From the IMG/VR virus record IMGVR_UViG_2802429232_000005: a DNA stretch of 5,910 nucleotides, one strand, 5' to 3'. Both the position numbers and the translations under genes were made by a program. Under the pieces are notes generated by a model, which ran no database searches, had not been told where the DNA came from, and saw only the letters and a program-made list of their open reading frames with translations. Numbering within the stretch: position 1 is the first letter of the stretch; every line of letters starts with the position of its first letter. This DNA comes from a virus (Duplodnaviria > Heunggongvirae > Uroviricota > Caudoviricetes). Below are positions 40-5,910 of this stretch, one piece after another.

Positions 40-360
40 CCAAATTCACTATGCCACTACATACAAAAGCCTTTCACACACTCCAGACAAACAACTCAAA
101 CACAACAACGAAAGGAATCGCCCACCTGCCATTACTCCATACACGGAGAAGAACAATCACCAAAACGACGAGAACACCCCATAGAAGAACCACCGCAAAA
201 CGAACGAAACCACATACACCGACAGAGAAAACAACACACCCAATTCACCAACAGAAATAGTCGCCGTATAGAACATTCTGGAAGGAGTGAGCATTAACGC
301 CTATAGAAAGGTTGAGACAGATAAAACACGAAGAAAACACAACATGTATAGCGAAGAAGC
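40..360 (+). other. A+C-rich, T/G-poor compositionally skewed tract; probably non-coding (candidate structured-free RNA or ssDNA spacer)
   Basis: Hand count of 61-240 gives roughly A 48-55%, C about 30%, T 3-12%, G 10-13% on the + strand. The ORFs called here (13..297, 36..260) start at GTG and translate to low-complexity T/Q/H/R/K/P-rich peptides. Confidence 0.5.
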
Positions 361-383
361 CAGGTATGTATAAGTGGGGAGGG

Positions 384-408
384 AAGGAGGGGTGTCGCCT
401 CCTTTTTC
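384..408 (+). terminator. Intrinsic terminator-like hairpin (AAGGAGG / CCTCCTT stem, 7-nt loop) followed by T5
   Basis: AAGGAGG (384-390) pairs with CCTCCTT (398-404); TTTTT run 403-407 directly follows the stem. Confidence 0.55.
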
Positions 409-471
409 GTATTTATTCAACTCCTGATTTTATCCCCCCGTAACACCCCTACGGTCAGCCTTCGGTCCATA

Positions 472-606
472 CAGGGAAAGGCTGCATCCTGCTACAGAAA
501 CGGCTGGGTTGCCTTCGGGGAACGGCTGGAGGTTTTCAGGGAAACGGTCGAGTTGCCTGTGTGGATTTCGGGAAAAGGCTCGATGCCGGTTCAGGAACGG
601 TGGTGT
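472..606. repeat. Cluster of about six degenerate ~22-bp direct repeats, core GGGAAACGGCTG (iteron-like)
   Basis: cagggaaaggctg (472), cagaaacggctgg (495), ggggaacggctgg (517), cagggaaacggtcg (537), cgggaaaaggctcg (568), caggaacggtggtg (591); spacing about 22-32 bp. No reverse-complement copies, so these are direct repeats, not a long hairpin. Confidence 0.6.
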
Positions 607-785
607 ACCGGTATAGCGAGAGGGAGAGTTGCGGCTGCCCACCTGTAATGTGCGGGAAGAAGAGAGGCGCTCACGTGCAGGCGGACTAACTTACCGCTGG
701 ATTCCCTCTGAATGCCCAGCTACAGCGTAATTGTGCCAGACAGCCAACGGGTCACAATCGATTTCAGTAGGTTTTCGGGGAGATG

Positions 786-830
786 ATTATTCTGCCCACC
801 AGCCACCTTAGGCCACTAAATCAGAATAAT
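786..830. repeat. Perfect 9-bp inverted repeat ATTATTCTG / CAGAATAAT with 27-bp spacer
   Basis: ATTATTCTG at 786-794 and its exact reverse complement CAGAATAAT at 822-830. Confidence 0.5.
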
Positions 831-917
831 GTAAAAAGTGTACTCGGTACTGAACCTGAAAACTCACTGCCAAAACCACATTCACCGGAATAAAATCCTT
901 TTTCGCCTGTGCGTTAT

Positions 918-957
918 TGCGATAATAACACCATTAAGAAAACATCTTGTTTAAGGA
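918..957 (+). promoter_or_regulatory. Conserved leader module A: extended -10 (TGcGATAAT), AACA-tct-TGTT palindrome, SD AAGGA
   Basis: TGCGATAAT 918-926; palindrome 941-951; AAGGA 953-957, 7 nt before ATG 965. The module recurs upstream of other genes in the array. Confidence 0.5.
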
Positions 958-964
958 TTGCTTT

Positions 965-1294
965 ATGTTTGCAAATATCGACATCAACCAAATTAAGAAA
1001 TTGACTCAAAAAGAGTTTGACCAGTTTTATGAGCTGGAAGGTTGGTCTTCCACTCTGATTAATTCAAGATGGGTGCTGGAACTGATGACTCGTGATGACG
1101 CACCTGCTTTGATGATCAGCGACCTGGGTGAAGATGCTGACTTTATGGATATGAGCGAATTTTGTGTGGACACATACAACCGCAGCCAGAAGTACTACTT
1201 CACATGCGATAGCGAAAATGACGTGATTTCTAAGGTCTATCTTCACCTCGTCCAGCATTGGGACGTTCAGGAGTTTCTTGAGGTATTCGCGTAA
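965..1294 (+). CDS. Hypothetical small acidic protein (109 aa)
   Basis: ATG 965 with SD AAGGA at 7-nt spacing. The ORF track's longer form starts at TTG 947 with no SD. Hand count about 21 D/E vs 8 K/R. Stop TAA 1292-1294, followed by hairpin 1304-1322. Confidence 0.6.
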   Translation: MFANIDINQIKKLTQKEFDQFYELEGWSSTLINSRWVLELMTRDDAPALMISDLGEDADFMDMSEFCVDTYNRSQKYYFTCDSENDVISKVYLHLVQHWDVQEFLEVFA

Positions 1295-1303
1295 TCACAA
1301 CCA

Positions 1304-1322
1304 AAGCCAGCATTGCTGGCTT
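1304..1322 (+). other. GC-rich hairpin AAGCCAGCA / TGCTGGCTT downstream of the 109-aa gene (no clear U-tract)
   Basis: Inverted repeat 1304-1312 / 1314-1322; same AAG-palindrome-CTTAA style as the hairpins at 2926 and 3397. Confidence 0.45.
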
Positions 1323-1391
1323 AACTTAATCTGTAGCCGCAGGGAAGAACCTGCATATCGCTCATGCGCCTGATTAATATGCTTTGTAGCC

Positions 1392-1443
1392 GTTTTCTTA
1401 CTGGTATTATTTACGCCATTGAGAAAACAAGTTGTTTACGGAG
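1392..1443 (+). promoter_or_regulatory. Conserved leader module D: extended -10 (TGgTATTAT), AAACAA-g-TTGTTT palindrome, SD GGAG
   Basis: TGGTATTAT 1392-1400; perfect 6-bp-arm palindrome 1425-1437; GGAG 1440-1443, 5 nt before ATG 1449. Confidence 0.45.
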
Positions 1444-1448
1444 TTGTG

Positions 1449-1760
1449 ATGAAAAAATCATTGGTTCTTGGTCTGGACAAAGACCAGAAGAGAAAAGAGA
1501 AGCCTGCACTGGTTGCTCAATTAACTTTGCTGGATATCGTTGCCAATGGGACCTCTATTCGTCTGTTCCGTGAAACAGCGGTGTCTTTCGATAAAAACAC
1601 CTTTACTCGTTATGTAATGAATGTTCGTCGCCAGCGTGGAAAAGGCTGGGTGGCATTTCAAAGAATGTGGCCGGAACATCAGCTCGAACTGGCTTTGATG
1701 GAAGTTAACCGCGTGGCCCAGCAAGAGATTCAGAGAGCATCAGTGATGGCAATAGCCTGA
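1449..1760 (+). CDS. Hypothetical small basic protein (103 aa); possible nucleic-acid-binding regulator
   Basis: ATG 1449 preceded by GGAG. The ORF-track start TTG 1419 lies inside the palindromic leader and is unlikely. Hand count about 18 K/R vs 10 D/E. Stop TGA 1758-1760, followed by a strong terminator. Confidence 0.55.
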   Translation: MKKSLVLGLDKDQKRKEKPALVAQLTLLDIVANGTSIRLFRETAVSFDKNTFTRYVMNVRRQRGKGWVAFQRMWPEHQLELALMEVNRVAQQEIQRASVMAIA

Positions 1761-1794
1761 TAATGTGCAAGTGGTAATTAGTCGACCGTACGAC

Positions 1795-1822
1795 AGCCCC
1801 GCCATCCTTACGGGGCTTTTTT
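1795..1822 (+). terminator. Rho-independent terminator (AGCCCCG / CGGGGCT stem, 9-nt loop, T6)
   Basis: Stem 1795-1801 / 1811-1817, followed by TTTTTT 1817-1822. Confidence 0.75.
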
Positions 1823-1849
1823 GTATTGTAAGTACATACTTACGATCAT
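1821..1849 (+). promoter_or_regulatory. Putative sigma70 promoter (TTGTAT-N17-GATCAT) with operator-like palindrome GTAAGTA-ca-TACTTAC in the spacer
   Basis: -35-like TTGTAT 1821-1826, -10-like GATCAT 1844-1849; 7-bp-arm palindrome 1828-1843 fills the spacer. Confidence 0.4.
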
Positions 1850-1886
1850 GGAATAGAAAAATAACCAATACACTACGGAGAGTGAA

Positions 1887-2282
1887 ATGACCGTTAAACG
1901 CGAAAAACTGACAGTTGATGTTTACTATGCCTCTGAAACCGCCGAAGGTAAGAATGTGGCAAAAATCACCGTTGTTACGTACAACACCGAAACTGGTGCC
2001 GAAGTCCAGGCCAGTACGATCGTGCGTAAAGGTGATGCCTCCGGCGGCGAGTACGCGACTCAATACCAGTCTATTTTCGATGCAACTGACCCGCTGCTGC
2101 TGAAAATCGAGAACTACTTCCGCCAGGTTGATGAAGAGGTGTTTGAAACCATGATGAATATGGTTAACACCGTATTCGCCTCCAGCCTGAATACCAACAC
2201 TACCTGGATTGGTCAGTACGGCCTGCGCATTACCTCTGGCATTCCTGCCGACACCTTAATCCCTGAAAGCGTATTCGCTTAA
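1887..2282 (+). CDS. Hypothetical protein (131 aa), mildly acidic
   Basis: ATG 1887 with SD GGAG 1877-1880 at 6-nt spacing. Stop TAA 2280-2282, followed by a strong hairpin terminator. Confidence 0.7.
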   Translation: MTVKREKLTVDVYYASETAEGKNVAKITVVTYNTETGAEVQASTIVRKGDASGGEYATQYQSIFDATDPLLLKIENYFRQVDEEVFETMMNMVNTVFASSLNTNTTWIGQYGLRITSGIPADTLIPESVFA

Positions 2283-2291
2283 TCCTCTTTA

Positions 2292-2318
2292 AATGGCGCG
2301 TAAACCGCGCCATTTTAT
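2292..2318 (+). terminator. Rho-independent terminator (AATGGCGCG / CGCGCCATT stem, loop TAAAC, T-rich tail)
   Basis: 9-bp perfect stem 2292-2300 / 2306-2314, followed by TTATTA. Confidence 0.7.
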
Positions 2319-2325
2319 TATGCCC

Positions 2326-2392
2326 GATAACAATTTGTTTTCTGCCTTATCTGATTTGTGAAAATGATTTCACTGAAGCAACTTAATAAGGA
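2326..2392 (+). promoter_or_regulatory. Leader module E: GATAAC, AACAA-t-TTGTT palindrome, shared TGCCTTATCT 10-mer, GTGAAA-atga-TTTCAC palindrome, SD AAGGA
   Basis: Palindromes at 2329-2339 and 2358-2373; TGCCTTATCT 2343-2352 is identical to 3042-3051; AAGGA 2388-2392, 7 nt before ATG 2400. Confidence 0.45.
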
Positions 2393-2399
2393 AACCATC

Positions 2400-2774
2400 A
2401 TGGGACTTGATATCTATATCGAGACGCAGCCTAAAAACGATCTGAATAACGAGGTATCCAGAAAGCAGGTTGCTTACTTCCGTAAGTTCAATGCGCTCGT
2501 TGGGTGGATGGAGCGCAACGTAGGTGAAGTCGAAAATTGTGAGCTTTTAGAATTAACGATGAATGACATTTGCCTTCTGAAAGCTCATTTGATGCACATA
2601 AACGAAAGCAATTGCGAAGAGTACTTGCCTACCCGGGAAGGTTTTTTCTTCGGCAGTCAGGAGTACGACGAAGGTTACTGGCATGATGTGGGGGAGTTGA
2701 AAGAGCTTGTGGAAGATCTGATTAAGAACCACGACTTTCACAATAATAGACTGACCTTCTGCGCCTGGTGGTAA
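2400..2774 (+). CDS. Hypothetical small acidic protein (124 aa)
   Basis: ATG 2400 with SD AAGGA. The ORF-track start GTG 2358 lies inside the operator-like palindrome. Hand count about 23 D/E vs 11 K/R. Stop TAA 2772-2774. Confidence 0.6.
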   Translation: MGLDIYIETQPKNDLNNEVSRKQVAYFRKFNALVGWMERNVGEVENCELLELTMNDICLLKAHLMHINESNCEEYLPTREGFFFGSQEYDEGYWHDVGELKELVEDLIKNHDFHNNRLTFCAWW

Positions 2775-2776
2775 AT

Positions 2777-2920
2777 ATGGGCGATTTCAAGAAACGCCTG
2801 AAGGAGAGAGCCGAGATGGTCAGAAAGCGAAACGCCTCTTCTGTCATCAGATACGCAAGGCAGTTTAGTCGCAACAACAAATCAGTTGAGGAAAAGATCC
2901 TTAGCGTAATCGGGCGATAA
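2777..2920 (+). CDS. Hypothetical very basic small protein (47 aa), possibly translationally coupled to the upstream acidic gene
   Basis: ATG 2777 lies 2 nt after the upstream stop, with GGTGG 5 nt upstream. Hand translation MGDFKKRLKERAEMVRKRNASSVIRYARQFSRNNKSVEEKILSVIGR, stop TAA 2918-2920. Not in the ORF track, presumably below its length cut-off. The stop sits 5 nt before hairpin repeat 2926, the same spacing as stop 3391 to hairpin 3397. Confidence 0.4.
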   Translation: MGDFKKRLKERAEMVRKRNASSVIRYARQFSRNNKSVEEKILSVIGR

Positions 2921-2925
2921 TTATT

Positions 2926-2956
2926 AAGGCCACCAGCATTGGTGGTCTTAAATGAC
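2926..2956 (+). repeat. Hairpin repeat copy 1: AAGGCCACCA-gcat-TGGTGGtCTT + AAATGAC
   Basis: 10-bp stem (one G-T wobble) with 4-nt loop; about 90% identical to the copy at 3397-3428. Confidence 0.6.
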
Positions 2957-3041
2957 TTTTAATAACCGAAGGTTAGTTTGAAACCTGGCTATCAACTTCC
3001 AGAACCTTTCTTGTGTATTCAGCCTGTATTAACTTCTTTTA

Positions 3042-3102
3042 TGCCTTATCTACACTGCGATAATTACACCAACAAGAAAACAACATGTTTACGCAGTGAG
3101 GA
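3042..3102 (+). promoter_or_regulatory. Conserved leader module B: TGCCTTATCT, extended -10 TGcGATAAT, AAACA-aca-TGTTT palindrome, SD GAGGA
   Basis: TGCGATAAT 3056-3064; palindrome 3078-3090 (core AACATGTT is perfect); GAGGA 3098-3102, 7 nt before ATG 3110. Confidence 0.5.
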
Positions 3103-3109
3103 TATGCTC

Positions 3110-3391
3110 ATGACTGATTTCACCATTACCCCTAAAGCACAAAATGTATTTCTTGAATCATGGCTGGACTTGCCGGAAACAGAACAGCAAGAAATGGATC
3201 ATGTGGATTATGACGAGCAGGTAAGCACGCGATTCTTCCACTTTGAGGGATGCGTTTACGACATTGTCGACTTCATGCGAGATGACCGCTTCCCTGAATG
3301 GCACGCAAGCTATCCACTAAACGCCTTTGCCATGCTGATGATCCGTGTGGATGATTCAGGGGATACCATCGACATCGGTCTGCTCCACTAA
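3110..3391 (+). CDS. Hypothetical small, strongly acidic protein (93 aa); DNA-mimic-like composition
   Basis: ATG 3110 with SD GAGGA at 7-nt spacing. In-frame ATG 3104 is too close to the SD, and the track's TTG 2978 start would run through the promoter module. Hand count about 20 D/E vs 5 K/R. Stop TAA 3389-3391. Confidence 0.6.
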   Translation: MTDFTITPKAQNVFLESWLDLPETEQQEMDHVDYDEQVSTRFFHFEGCVYDIVDFMRDDRFPEWHASYPLNAFAMLMIRVDDSGDTIDIGLLH

Positions 3392-3396
3392 AGGCT

Positions 3397-3428
3397 AAGG
3401 CCACCAATGCTGGTGGCCTTAAATGACC
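3397..3428 (+). repeat. Hairpin repeat copy 2: AAGGCCACCA-atgc-TGGTGGCCTT + AAATGACC
   Basis: Perfect 10-bp stem with 4-nt loop, 5 nt after the stop codon; direct repeat of 2926-2956. Confidence 0.6.
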
Positions 3429-3520
3429 ATCCTGTTTCCCTCAGGCTAATAACACCAACCTCTTACCTCCAGGCAACCGACAAACCCACCTGTTCCCGTC
3501 CGGCTACCGCAACTTTCCAC

Positions 3521-3588
3521 TTTGACGCCTTATTCGTACAACGATAATTAATACCAACAAGAAAACAATTTGTTATTTACGATAAGGA
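3521..3588 (+). promoter_or_regulatory. Conserved leader module C: sigma70-like promoter TTTGAC-N16-GATAAT, AACAA-t-TTGTT palindrome, SD AAGGA
   Basis: TTTGAC 3521-3526, GATAAT 3543-3548; palindrome 3564-3574; AAGGA 3584-3588, 7 nt before ATG 3596. Confidence 0.55.
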
Positions 3589-3595
3589 ATTAATC

Positions 3596-4078
3596 ATGAA
3601 TTTTATCGCTACTGTAAACGCACCCGCACATGGCAATATCGCTGTAACGTTCTCTGACATTGAAAAACGAGTACTTGGTGCATGGCGCGACAATGAGACG
3701 GTAGAACTGTCAGCACAAGAAAAATGCATTATTGCACGCGACATCATTGGCAATCGTCGTTACTCGCGGGTATTTGAGAAAGCGTATGTGGTAAATTCTG
3801 GATTCGGAACGTTCGTCTTTCCGGTGCGCTCCGGGCGATTCTGCCAGTCCAAGCTGATTGAGTTCGCTACGCAGATTTCTGTCTGGATTAAAACTCAATC
3901 GTCGTTCAAATTTTCCGACGATGAAGCAGTATCGCAGGGGATGCGGATCGCCAACAATGCGATTAAATGCAAAAACATTACGTATACCGCTGGCGTTGAT
4001 ACATGGAAACTGTTTTGCGCTAACTTTATGCTGAACGTATACGCCAGCAACCGCATCCACATCCTTGATGGCGTGTAA
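3596..4078 (+). CDS. Hypothetical protein (160 aa)
   Basis: ATG 3596 with SD and a near-consensus promoter upstream. Stop TAA 4076-4078, followed by a stable hairpin. Confidence 0.7.
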   Translation: MNFIATVNAPAHGNIAVTFSDIEKRVLGAWRDNETVELSAQEKCIIARDIIGNRRYSRVFEKAYVVNSGFGTFVFPVRSGRFCQSKLIEFATQISVWIKTQSSFKFSDDEAVSQGMRIANNAIKCKNITYTAGVDTWKLFCANFMLNVYASNRIHILDGV

Positions 4079-4080
4079 CT

Positions 4081-4109
4081 GAGAAGAGGGCCAGAAACGG
4101 CCCTTTCTC
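4081..4109 (+). terminator. Stable hairpin (GAGAAGAGGGCC / GGCCCTTTCTC, loop AGAAAC) after the 160-aa gene; weak U-tract
   Basis: About 11-bp stem with a 1-nt bulge; the loop carries the CAGAAACGGC repeat motif; the T-rich tail lies partly inside the stem. Confidence 0.4.
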
Positions 4110-4123
4110 TATAGCCACCAGCT

Positions 4124-4206
4124 GCCGCAGGGAAATTTTCAGAAACGGCAAGGAACGCATTCATGAGCCGACGGGAAACGGCCAGGATTTTTTCGGGAAA
4201 CGGCTG
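4124..4206. repeat. Second cluster of GGGAAACGGC-type direct repeats (4-5 degenerate units)
   Basis: cagggaaa (4129), cagaaacggc (4140), aggaacgc (4151), cgggaaacggcc (4172), cgggaaacggctg (4194). GCCGCAGGGAA at 4124-4134 also occurs at 1336-1346. Confidence 0.55.
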
Positions 4207-4334
4207 CATTCGCCTTTGTGTAGAAAAAAACATCGGGAAGCTGGTGGAATCCAACCAGCGGTTGTCGGACAGGTGAGCGGGGAAAATTATGATGACTTTC
4301 GTCGCCTGAGACATCCAGATTTCTTTCGTAGCAT

Positions 4335-4388
4335 AATCACATACGTGATTAAGTGGTGTGATTATGTGAAAAATCACGCGCACATAAT
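4335..4388. promoter_or_regulatory. Cluster of GTGATT / AATCAC inverted repeats; candidate operator or origin-like site
   Basis: AATCAC-atac-GTGATT at 4335-4350; ATTATGTG (4361-4368) and CACATAAT (4381-4388) form a perfect 8-bp inverted repeat; four GTGATT/AATCAC hexamers in alternating orientation. Confidence 0.35.
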
Positions 4389-4420
4389 ACGCGAGCGGAT
4401 ACGGAACAAAACAAAATGCC

Positions 4421-4448
4421 GATCCGCGCCGACAAATAAACGCGGATC
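4421..4448. other. Perfect 8-bp inverted repeat GATCCGCG / CGCGGATC with 12-nt spacer, containing two GATC sites
   Basis: GATCCGCG 4421-4428 and CGCGGATC 4441-4448. Confidence 0.4.
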
Positions 4449-4618
4449 ATAAAGCAAGACTAAAAGCCAATGATTAACCATACACCATAACGCAATATAA
4501 CGCGTTTTAAGCGCGTTAATGCGCTAAGTAATGGGTATATGCTGGTAAGGATATAAAAGCTCGTCTATGGCGTTATTTTTGCGCTTATTTTTATATTGTT
4601 GGAGTGAGTCAAAGACAA

Positions 4619-4642
4619 TAAAAAAAGCGCCATCATTGGCGC
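4619..4642 (-). terminator. Rho-independent terminator on the minus strand (GCGCCA / TGGCGC stem, then T-run on the minus strand)
   Basis: Stem 4627-4632 / 4637-4642; the A-run at 4619-4626 on + is a U-run after the hairpin on the minus strand. Confidence 0.6.
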
Positions 4643-4666
4643 GTTATGGTGGAAGTATTGGAAACG

Positions 4667-4689
4667 AAAAAAGCGCCCATAGTGGGCGC
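4667..4689 (-). terminator. Rho-independent terminator on the minus strand (GCGCCCA / TGGGCGC stem, loop TAG, T6 on the minus strand)
   Basis: Stem 4673-4679 / 4683-4689 preceded on + by AAAAAA 4667-4672; lies just downstream of the 76-aa gene stop. Confidence 0.7.
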
Positions 4690-4695
4690 TCGATT

Positions 4696-4926
4696 TTATT
4701 TATGTAAACTGATTTCAAATCCCATTTCTACAAACGCTTTTAACATTAAAAATATATCAGCGTCATTCACGTCTGCTTTTTTTCGCTCCTGGTCGCTCAA
4801 TAAGTCAATTTTGCGCGTCGTTTCATCTATAAGCTCGACTGCGCGCCCAGCGTAACCAGCGATCCCAGCGATGCGATTAACAAAATATTCATTGCGCACG
4901 TTAACGCCAGCGATAATCATAAACAT
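4696..4926 (-). CDS. Hypothetical small protein (76 aa)
   Basis: ATG (complement of 4924-4926) with SD AAGGAG (complement of 4934-4939) at 7-nt spacing. Flanked by near-identical terminator hairpins; AT-rich codon usage like the adjacent 216-aa gene. Confidence 0.6.
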   Translation of the reverse strand: MFMIIAGVNVRNEYFVNRIAGIAGYAGRAVELIDETTRKIDLLSDQERKKADVNDADIFLMLKAFVEMGFEISLHK

Positions 4927-4939
4927 GATTAAGCTCCTT

Positions 4940-4960
4940 AAAAGCGCCCATAGTGGGCGC
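4940..4960 (-). terminator. Rho-independent terminator on the minus strand between the 216-aa and 76-aa genes; near-identical to 4667-4689
   Basis: Stem GCGCCCA 4944-4950 / TGGGCGC 4954-4960, loop TAG. On the minus strand it is followed by TTTT and then immediately the AAGGAG SD of the 76-aa gene. Confidence 0.65.
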
Positions 4961-4973
4961 CAGATTCCATTAA

Positions 4974-5624
4974 TTACGCTTTGAAAGCATCAGCCAGATA
5001 GTTATAGAAATCATTTTTAATAAAGCGATATTGCTGCGTACCAGCTTTTGCGCTTCCCATTCCTTTGACTTTCTCAACAAGTCCAAGACGTTCGCAAAGA
5101 TTGATCAACTGGTTGGCTTGAGTATAGCCAGCGTCCAATTTAATTTCGCACGCTTTTTTAGCTTCATTCATTAAATCGAAAACAGCGCCATTAGTGAACG
5201 TGTCGATCTCGTCGTTAATCATATCGATTAAAGCGAATACACGAGATCCTGACATATCAGCGATGGAGTAAACGCATTTACCAGATTTAATTGATTTAAC
5301 CAGATAAACCAGTTTTTCCAGTGAATAACTATTAGTCATTGCATCACGAAAAAATACTTCTGGCGCTTGTTTACTTGCTTTAATCGCATAGTAGAAAACA
5401 GAGCATAATTTTTCATCTTCTACAGCGTTTACAACGTTGTTGATGAAGTAAGCAAGTTTAGTGGTCGCAGCTTGCATATTTGCTTTGTCTGCTTTAGTGT
5501 GCGTACCATTTTTATAATGTTCGTTATATGTTTGAGTTGCCAGATCTGCTTTTTCGCGCAGCTCGTCGGATACAATGGATGCAGCTTCAATGATGGATTT
5601 TTTAGAAATGATAATGTTAGCCAT
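4974..5624 (-). CDS. Hypothetical protein (216 aa), Lys/Ala-rich, AT-rich codon usage; family not recognised
   Basis: ATG (complement of 5622-5624) with SD AAGGA (complement of 5633-5637) at 8-nt spacing; long uninterrupted ORF; terminator directly downstream. Confidence 0.7.
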   Translation of the reverse strand: MANIIISKKSIIEAASIVSDELREKADLATQTYNEHYKNGTHTKADKANMQAATTKLAYFINNVVNAVEDEKLCSVFYYAIKASKQAPEVFFRDAMTNSYSLEKLVYLVKSIKSGKCVYSIADMSGSRVFALIDMINDEIDTFTNGAVFDLMNEAKKACEIKLDAGYTQANQLINLCERLGLVEKVKGMGSAKAGTQQYRFIKNDFYNYLADAFKA

Positions 5625-5760
5625 GATAATATCCTTATGAAAGTTTAAAATTTAACTCAAGAAAGAAAGTGTTTACTCTCGTTCCTGATGCGTTCAATTA
5701 TCGATACGCAAAAAAAGATTGCAAGTATTTTTTTAAATTTTTTGCAGGGACGAAAGTCCT
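5625..5760 (-). promoter_or_regulatory. AT-rich upstream region of the 216-aa gene (promoter not resolved); contains a GGAC-GAAA-GTCC mini-hairpin
   Basis: About 30% GC, A/T runs, position relative to the start codon; GGACGAAAGTCC at about 5749-5760. Confidence 0.3.
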
Positions 5761-5910
5761 AGAAATAAAATCGAGATCGTCGAAGGTGTTCCCTAAATAA
5801 ATAATTAATTCCGGCTTATAACCTTATATATTTATACGGGGTAGAATTGGAGGTGTATTTAATAATTGGCATTTAAAAAAATAACCGAACTTAGCCTGTT
5901 ATTACACTTA

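Follow-up and report, generated by a model that had tools for sequence, protein, structure and literature searches.

The DNA analyzed here, referred to below as the window, is a stretch of 5,910 nucleotides from a virus of the Caudoviricetes (IMG/VR record IMGVR_UViG_2802429232_000005), and our main subject is a pair of arrays of short direct repeats within it, which we call array 1 and array 2. Window positions 62-5910 are 97% identical to pLF82 (NC_011917), a plasmid of Escherichia coli LF82 that is also on deposit as phage Cyrano (OV696614). The window matches hundreds of plasmids of ~105-115 kb that are typed as IncFIB and come from Escherichia, Klebsiella, Enterobacter, Salmonella (pHCM2), Citrobacter, and Yersinia (pMT1). 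The elements that carry it are SSU5-like phage-plasmids, of the SSU5/pHCM2/pLF82 type, which are common in clinical Enterobacteriaceae. In pLF82 the arrays are located at ~71.0-71.1 kb and 74.7-74.8 kb, and more than 700 plasmids in PLSDB carry them, including pHCM2 of Salmonella Typhi.

Each array is found just downstream of a hairpin that closes a rightward transcription unit, and both share the orientation of the flanking transcription. Between the arrays, seven small open reading frames (ORFs) without an assigned function lie on the + strand. Three genes that run leftward follow array 2 on its right side, encoding a protein of 76 amino acids (aa), a protein of 216 aa, and a member of the FljA family, the last of them just outside the window. 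About 1.5 kb around array 1 has no RefSeq gene annotation, and a matching annotation gap is present in pHCM2 and in relatives from Klebsiella, Citrobacter, and Enterobacter. We found no database record that annotates the arrays as a feature, and they are undescribed in the searchable literature, which was queried for the motif, for repeats in SSU5, for the origins of pHCM2 and pMT1, for targets of FljA, and for the termini of SSU5. The arrays are an unannotated and strictly conserved pair framing a variable block of early genes, and this block probably holds genes for host takeover or anti-defense.

Units, spacing, and conservation of the two arrays

The original prediction, made from the sequence alone, had placed a cluster of about six direct repeats, some two helical turns apart, at positions 472-606. 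The cluster is real and its coordinates are right. Array 1 consists of six degenerate units of a GGGAAACGGCTG-type motif (Table 1), whose core, G[AG]AA[ACG]GG, starts at 475, 497, 519, 541, 572, and 594, giving a start-to-start spacing of 22, 22, 22, 31, and 22 bp. All of the units (6/6) are on the + strand and no inverted copy of the motif was found within the array, in agreement with what had been noted before. The number of motif occurrences was far above that in shuffled sequences. For a 12-mer with up to three mismatches, there were 14 occurrences in the window compared with 3.7 ± 2.0 after shuffling, and none of 200 shuffles reached 14; for a 9-mer with at most one mismatch, there were 7 occurrences compared with 1.1 (0/200 shuffles). 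Tandem Repeats Finder reported nothing in the window, because only the core of ~9-12 bp recurs and the spacers are unrelated. Array 1 is therefore a series of spaced short sites rather than a genuine tandem repeat. With a helical repeat of 10.75 bp, each of the six sites is at most 1.5 bp from one helical face. The original prediction is borne out in that the units are direct repeats spaced by about two helical turns, a geometry suited to an array of protein-binding sites.

Array 2, which was absent from the original prediction, has the same motif in the same orientation. It reads GGGAAATTTTCAGAAACGGCAAGGAACGC...GGGAAACGGCCAG...GGGAAACGGCTGC, with cores that start at 4142, 4175, and 4197; the sites at 4131 and 4153 are weaker, and the units stay in an 11/22/33-bp register. 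In the whole 108-kb plasmid the pattern GGRAAVGG has 19 matches, 7 of which (7/19) are inside the two arrays.

Table 1. Positions of the arrays, their units, and neighboring features in the window
Feature	Sequence	Position	Strand	Remark
Terminator-like hairpin	GGAGG...CCTCC then TTTTTCGTATTT	381..407	+	~65 nt 5' of array 1; closes the A/C-rich non-coding tract
Box between hairpin and array 1	CCCCCGTAAC	435..444	+	8/10 positions invariant in a 7-sequence alignment
ORF across array 1, no gene		430..642	-	No Pfam or PHROG family; frame not kept
Array 1, six degenerate units	GGGAAACGGCTG-type	474..603	+	Read from the sequence, with shuffle test
Array 1, unit 1	GGGAAAGGCTG	474-484	+	
Array 1, unit 2	AGAAACGGCTG	496-506	+	
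Array 1, unit 3	GGGGAACGGCTG	517-528	+	
Array 1, unit 4	GGGAAACGGTCG	539-550	+	
Array 1, unit 5	GGGAAAAGGCTC	570-581	+	
Array 1, unit 6	CAGGAACGGTGG	592-603	+	
Hairpin before array 2		4087..4108	+	Immediately after the 160-aa gene's stop codon; array 2 follows ~20 nt further on
Array 2	Same motif as array 1	4130..4207	+	Sequence reading and homologue alignments
Array 2, unit	GGGAAATTT	4130-4138	+	
Array 2, unit	AGAAACGGCA	4141-4150	+	
Array 2, unit	GGAACGC	4152-4158	+	
Array 2, unit	GGGAAACGGCCAG	4173-4185	+	
Array 2, unit	GGGAAACGGCTGC	4195-4207	+	
216-aa protein gene		4974..5624	-	Conserved; C-terminal winged helix predicted; 770 nt away from array 2
Leader element	AGAAAACAnnnnTGTTT	937-952	+	
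Leader element	AGAAAACAnnnnTGTTT	1422-1437	+	
Leader element	AGAAAACAnnnnTGTTT	2328-2343	-	Inverted fifth copy
Leader element	AGAAAACAnnnnTGTTT	3075-3090	+	
Leader element	AGAAAACAnnnnTGTTT	3560-3575	+	
Chi	GCTGGTGG	796-803	-	
Chi	GCTGGTGG	2930-2937	-	
Chi	GCTGGTGG	3409-3416	+	
Chi	GCTGGTGG	4115-4122	-	
Chi	GCTGGTGG	4240-4247	+	
Twin terminator hairpin		2924-2950		Contains a Chi site
Twin terminator hairpin		3396-3422		Contains a Chi site
Strong hairpin	AAAAGCGCCCATAGTGGGCGC	4669-4703		One copy 3' of each leftward gene (76 aa, 216 aa)
Strong hairpin	AAAAGCGCCCATAGTGGGCGC	4940-4974		

We examined the arrays in relatives, which included phage SSU5, pHCM2, representatives from Klebsiella, Citrobacter, and Enterobacter, and ~25 IMG/VR contigs. 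With the exception of pMT1, every SSU5-like relative in which the cassette region was read has kept both arrays, their order, and their orientation. The usual spacing is 22, 22, 22, 31, and 22 bp in array 1, and 33 or 34 bp followed by 22 bp in array 2; the spacings of the main lineages are 22, 31, 33/34, and 42/44 bp. In the Klebsiella lineage, a 9-bp deletion turned the 31-bp gap of array 1 into one of 22 bp. When 29 distinct homologues were aligned, the core columns of array 1 had a mean majority fraction of 0.86 (14/54 invariant), the spacer columns one of 0.71 (3/82 invariant), and the 135 nt located 3' of the array one of 0.59. For the two final units of array 2, an alignment of 7 sequences shows no variation, and conservation over 34 distinct homologues is 90% or more. 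The best-kept single unit, which is also the fullest form of the site, is TTTTCGGGAAACGGCCAGCTTT, and the invariant core of the motif is GGGAAACGG(C). Among 50,697 phage records scanned, the array was found in SSU5-like records only.

The surroundings of the arrays are far more variable. The right-hand flanks of both arrays differ among lineages, and the small genes present between the arrays vary, so that 1.48 to 4.2 kb separate the two. Where divergence is greatest among the lineages examined, identity is 50-63% for the 216-aa protein, 26-54% for the FljA-like protein, and ~30% for the 160-aa protein, and the core GGGAAACGGC is present at both of its usual positions. In pMT1 of Yersinia pestis (NZ_CP006752), array 1 and most of the cassette were removed through a deletion and IS1541, and array 2 is intact. 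At this locus of pMT1 (L259 5160-9130), everything from 3' of nrdB up to the final two small genes in the cassette is absent, including the A/C-rich tract described below. Copies of IS1541 flank the remaining part, and the 216-aa gene and the FljA-like gene are still there.

Array 1 does not encode protein. The minus-strand ORF that crosses it had been suspected of being an artifact of the repeats, and our analysis bears this out: the overlapping ORFs of Cyrano and SSU5 are in other frames and are broken in the window. CYRAN_104, a + strand ORF of Cyrano, contains two stop codons in the 97%-identical window, while SSU5_109 uses a different frame of the homologous DNA. Because 22 is not divisible by 3, the period of the repeats places successive units in different frames, and homologues of array 1 differ by 1-nt indels. 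A coding gene shared by homologues, which would have spoken against the original prediction, was also looked for, and no conserved open frame was found across array 1. The ORFs called across array 1 in GenBank records are thus no genes, and a protein-coding repeat was rejected, since frames and strands disagree between the ORFs of the window, Cyrano, and SSU5, and no family was matched.

Likewise, no RNA structure was detected. A comparison of the whole window with Rfam, at E values up to 10, returned only noise and neither CsrB nor CsrC. When array 1 was folded, one strand had a z-score of +0.29 and the other one of +1.46, while array 2 scored -0.79; these energies are no better than those of shuffled sequences. 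RNAalifold, run on 11 non-redundant sequences, yielded -7.3 kcal/mol and almost no consensus pairs. A structured RNA was therefore rejected for lack of an Rfam match, a fold signal, and a consensus structure. In published RNA sequencing (RNA-seq) data of LF82 (PMC9928086, S1 table), which are per-gene values from uninduced lysogens and infected macrophages, the ORF call over array 1 reached ~1.5x the local background and was outside the expressed "morons".

The cassette and its flanks

Both hairpins that precede the arrays are found in relatives. The sequence block of the one before array 1 is kept, with a weak stem in the pHCM2 lineage. The hairpin before array 2 is kept with differing sequences, followed in some relatives by a T-run: it reads GAGGGCC..GGCCCTTTC in the window, GGGGC..GCCCC TTTCTTTT in pHCM2, and GATGATGGCGCC..GGCGCCATCATC in the relative L256. 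In the box between the first hairpin and array 1, the invariant columns are C36 and C38-A44 of an alignment that begins at window position 400.

Left of the first hairpin is an A/C-rich tract of ~0.75 kb, consisting of window positions 45-300 and ~500 nt upstream of the window. It is kept in pHCM2 and SSU5 with many indels and is therefore non-coding; its locations in individual records are L002 11540-12300, L003 5100-5850, and L131 3990-4740. The + strand of window positions 45-300 contains 109 A, 79 C, 36 G, and 32 T, and the AT skew rises to 0.8. Within the tract are 4-6 copies of a GCCATTAC(C/T)C..ACACGGAGAAGAAC module, as well as AUACACGGAG, which is similar to the consensus obtained for CsrA by systematic evolution of ligands by exponential enrichment. 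Just upstream of the tract is a conserved promoter-like TTGACG-17-TATACC flanked by operator-like GTCAACG/CGTTGAC repeats. Expression of the tract in LF82 lysogens is at background.

A GATAAT -10-like hexamer, a AGAAAACAnnnnTGTTT leader element, or both precede 4 of the 7 ORFs between the arrays. The AGAAAACAnnnnTGTTT element has the form of a small hairpin (AAACA/TGTTT). There are 12 copies in pLF82, situated 15-35 nt ahead of start codons and following the orientation of the gene in 9/12 cases; they precede the early small genes of the window, parA, and the gene of a DnaB-like helicase. AGAAAACAnnnnTGTTT resembles an operator that sits in 5' leaders and serves a regulon across the plasmid. 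Since FljA of Salmonella binds the leader of the fliC mRNA, the FljA-family protein beside the window is a plausible regulator, yet one lineage has AGAAAACAnnnnTGTTT and no FljA-like gene in the 16.6 kb examined. The FljA-like gene (L001 17858-18379, minus), annotated as "transcriptional regulator", matches the Pfam family Flag1_repress with an E value of 1e-80 and shows a weak Hfq-like match at its C-terminus; Flag1_repress is FljA, the phase-1 flagellin repressor. The position of this gene is kept in pLF82/Cyrano, pHCM2, pMT1, and the Klebsiella relatives scanned, with identity down to 26-54%. Its neighbor, the 216-aa protein, had no match among PDB sequences; with its predicted winged helix it is a candidate only for the protein that binds the arrays.

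Chi sites are strongly enriched. The window has 5 in 5.9 kb, and the 108-kb plasmid has 25, compared with 3.3 expected, and no strand bias. Array 2 is flanked by two outward-facing Chi sites, the upstream one of which (CCACCAGC) is kept in nearly all relatives. Two further sites are inside the twin terminator hairpins and are oppositely directed because the hairpins differ by a flipped loop.

The non-coding stretch between array 2 and the leftward genes, with features at 4330-4385 and 4450-4660, contains four ATCAC/GTGAT 7-mers in alternating orientation. It also includes an AT-rich segment that has AACGCG-type palindromes and a GCGYTTATTTTT direct repeat. From their sequence, these features could be operators or an unwinding element. 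The two AAAAGCGCCCATAGTGGGCGC hairpins, located beyond this stretch, are reused terminator modules.

Possible roles of the arrays

An invariant asymmetric core with free spacers, whole-turn spacing in the main lineages, two fixed borders, a place behind terminators, and no signal of RNA structure or coding together point to a cis-acting DNA site that is recognized by a protein. We suggest that the arrays may be phased DNA binding-site arrays for a conserved protein, set behind terminator hairpins at the borders of the cassette, and we give this reading about an even chance of being correct. The arrays would then be cis-acting DNA elements with 1-6 copies of an asymmetric site of ~12-20 bp. The whole-turn spacing seen in most lineages would allow copies of one DNA-binding protein to sit side by side on one helical face and to bind cooperatively. 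One array stands at each border of a hyperplastic cassette of early small genes, downstream of a terminator and pointing along transcription, and such a location, after a hairpin on either side of the cassette, suggests a boundary, a roadblock, or a loop between the arrays. The two nucleoprotein complexes could mark or insulate the cassette, either by blocking read-through or by looping its two borders together. Alternatively, the complexes may serve another DNA transaction of the lytic cycle. The motif stays fixed even where identity among the neighboring phage proteins drops to 26-63%, and the binder would thus be expected to be a host protein or a very conserved phage protein.

Several points weigh against this interpretation. 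The binding protein is still only putative. The most divergent lineages have 1-5 units with spacings of 10-12 or 24-26 bp, and L256 has one or two units per site; phasing is therefore not universal, and cooperativity on one helical face is not the whole story. A role of the arrays within read-through RNA would account just as well for their fixed orientation relative to transcription. For classical regulators a location behind terminators is unusual, and the per-gene nature and the growth conditions of the RNA-seq data limit the argument from expression.

The DNA-level alternatives start with the replication iterons favored in the original prediction, according to which the arrays would be iterons or incompatibility sites of RepA. 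Direct repeats at ~22-bp spacing are what such sites look like, but repA (pLF82 31-1086) is ~35 kb away and has its own iterons, more than 15 copies of ATCCACTATAGAGAG at 21-bp spacing on both of its sides, which are unrelated to the array motif, and the GGGAAACGG motif is absent around repA. Moreover, both arrays are kept with the same core in Klebsiella pneumoniae p2 (NZ_CP065827), which has the replicon rep_cluster_2469, and pMT1 is a stable plasmid without array 1, which counts against array 1 as replicon iterons. We give this reading hardly any credence, and as far as sequence evidence can show it is refuted; the replicon-iteron label is a tempting mis-annotation, corrected here. The arrays could instead be a lytic origin or an origin enhancer, in which a phage initiator binds two clusters several kb apart, as at ori and crr of P4. 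A lytic origin must exist somewhere, since the phage-plasmid has a T4-like replication module comprised of a gp32-like single-stranded DNA-binding protein, a primase-like protein (DnaG/Toprim), a DnaB-like helicase, DnaE, and a UvsW-type helicase. In addition, the AT-rich stretch 4450-4660 with its GCGYTTATTTTT direct repeats is ~250 nt from array 2 (and from array 2 only), and the adjacent 216-aa protein has a predicted winged helix of the ORC/Cdc6 and Rep kind and a weak Foldseek match to a phage "Replication protein O" (E 0.07). However, the fold matches of this protein are weak and generic, and the cumulative GC skew of the whole plasmid is monotonic, peaks and bottoms out at repA, and does not inflect at the arrays. 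DnaA boxes are not in excess (9 compared with 6.3 expected, none of them exact), some lineages are down to one or two units, and the replication genes are 40-60 kb away, all of which makes an origin quite improbable. A dispersed partition centromere, with the arrays bound far from the par operon by the 117-aa adaptor of a type Ib ParA ATPase, strikes us as fairly improbable. Centromeres of types Ib, II, and III typically consist of direct repeats spaced by 11/22 bp, with which the geometry seen here is compatible, and the phage-plasmid N15 reportedly has dispersed centromeres distant from its par operon. In pLF82, a 222-aa ParA/MinD-type ATPase and its 117-aa partner are encoded at 31.4-32.4 kb, no repeat array is obvious beside their operon, and the partner and the arrays share a host distribution. 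That distribution, however, reflects mere membership of the same family. The original prediction had proposed a search for a Rep, ParB, or ParR-like gene on the same replicon; no Rep, ParA, or ParB gene was found by either array, this operon, the sole ParA operon, is ~40 kb away, and the array motif is absent near parA. The partner in K. pneumoniae p2 is only ~50% identical while the array core is unchanged, so that site and protein show no co-change, and pMT1, in which the partner has no match, is maintained without array 1.

At the RNA level, the units may be unstructured sites in lytic read-through or antiterminated transcripts, acting as a CsrA-type GGA sponge or as a platform for an FljA/Hfq-like protein. 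The arrays are always oriented as transcription is, GGA occurs 8 times on the + strand of positions 466-640 compared with 2 on the - strand, units such as CAGGGAAAGGCU resemble CsrB repeats, and an FljA-family protein is encoded next to the window. The arrays are most reduced in the lineage for which the 16.6 kb examined contain no FljA-like gene, although this is a single observation. We nevertheless consider this explanation unlikely, if less strikingly so: both arrays are behind terminator hairpins with lysogen expression near background, and there is no Rfam match, no hairpin presenting GGA, and no conserved structure. The invariant part is AAACGG(C), unit 2 of the window lacks GGA, the conservation of ACGGC is not accounted for by CsrA, and the FljA-like protein falls to 26-54% identity with the motif fixed. 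Finally, the arrays may have no function and be repeats generated by slippage, or junctions left over from recombination at module borders. Their position exactly at mosaic borders and their variable unit number would be expected in that case, but the core is constant where the neighboring proteins are only 26-63% identical and where spacers and flanks have diverged, and one motif is held at two separate places in every lineage examined. An absence of function is thus very improbable.

Returning to arrays bound by a conserved protein, a broader proposal can be formulated, which we regard as a doubtful, speculative extension. The arrays, the ~0.75-kb A/C-rich tract, and the operator-flanked promoter might together form a previously undescribed control module of SSU5-like phage-plasmids. 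A host factor or a highly conserved phage factor, bound to the GGGAAACGGC arrays on either side of the fast-evolving cassette, would isolate the cassette during lysogeny or make it accessible during the lytic cycle, whether through a polar roadblock, a loop, an R-loop, or an origin-type site. The conserved array pair is a concrete handle on how SSU5-like elements switch from the plasmid state to lytic growth.

Comparison with known systems

Several other identities were considered and dismissed. Sigma-54 and sigma-E promoters, lambda boxB, FtsK-orienting polar sequences (KOPS), clustered regularly interspaced short palindromic repeats (CRISPR), and EcoKI sites mismatched the arrays by eye in spacing or in sequence. 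Nothing was found in favor of a T5-like long terminal repeat spanning the interval from one array to the other, and the matches of TerL are to Terminase_6N/Terminase_3; data on virion termini were not found in the searchable literature. Contig ends at the arrays, considered as DNA termini, were inconsistent and are probably effects of storage or assembly.

The R sites of lambda cosB, to which the small subunit of terminase binds, also provide one protein with multiple sites. Their core, CGTTTCC, shares the 7-mer GGAAACG with the array core when one of the two is reverse complemented, which we treat as a lead only. Unlike cosB, the arrays are all direct, form two clusters, and are located ~11 kb or more upstream of terS/terL, and TerL does not belong to the lambda GpA family. 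The sponge RNAs CsrB, CsrC, and RsmZ have GGA units every 20-30 nt on one strand, as the arrays do; in contrast to them, the arrays have no Rfam match, no GGA hairpins, no identified promoter or terminator of their own, and low expression, and their ACGGC is not read by CsrA.

In satellite phage P4, ori and crr are, like the array pair, two clusters of one short direct repeat in the same orientation, a few kb apart. The P4 repeats, however, are bound by the alpha primase-helicase, which is encoded nearby, and neither such a protein nor origin activity is known for the arrays. Phased direct repeats, with more than one cluster per replicon, are also found in direct-repeat centromeres (parC of R1, parC of pSK41, tubC of TubR, and the type Ib parH/parC), which differ in that the arrays are not beside a par operon or promoter and that their motif is fixed where the putative adaptor diverges. 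N15 is a precedent for centromeres among phage genes and far from the par operon, although its sites are inverted repeats.

With plasmid iterons of the RepA, RepE, and pi types, including the RepFIB-type iterons of pLF82, the arrays share short asymmetric direct repeats, two-turn spacing, a conserved core, and free spacers. The incA/incC loci of P1 and the gamma, alpha, and beta origins of R6K further share with them the division into clusters kb apart. The arrays differ from iterons in having neither an adjacent initiator gene nor an excess of DnaA boxes, in their unrelated sequence, and in their independence of replicon type. In conclusion, by the features examined the arrays qualify neither as iterons of the plasmid itself nor as a centromere next to par, but it is the site arrays of the iteron and centromere type that they resemble.
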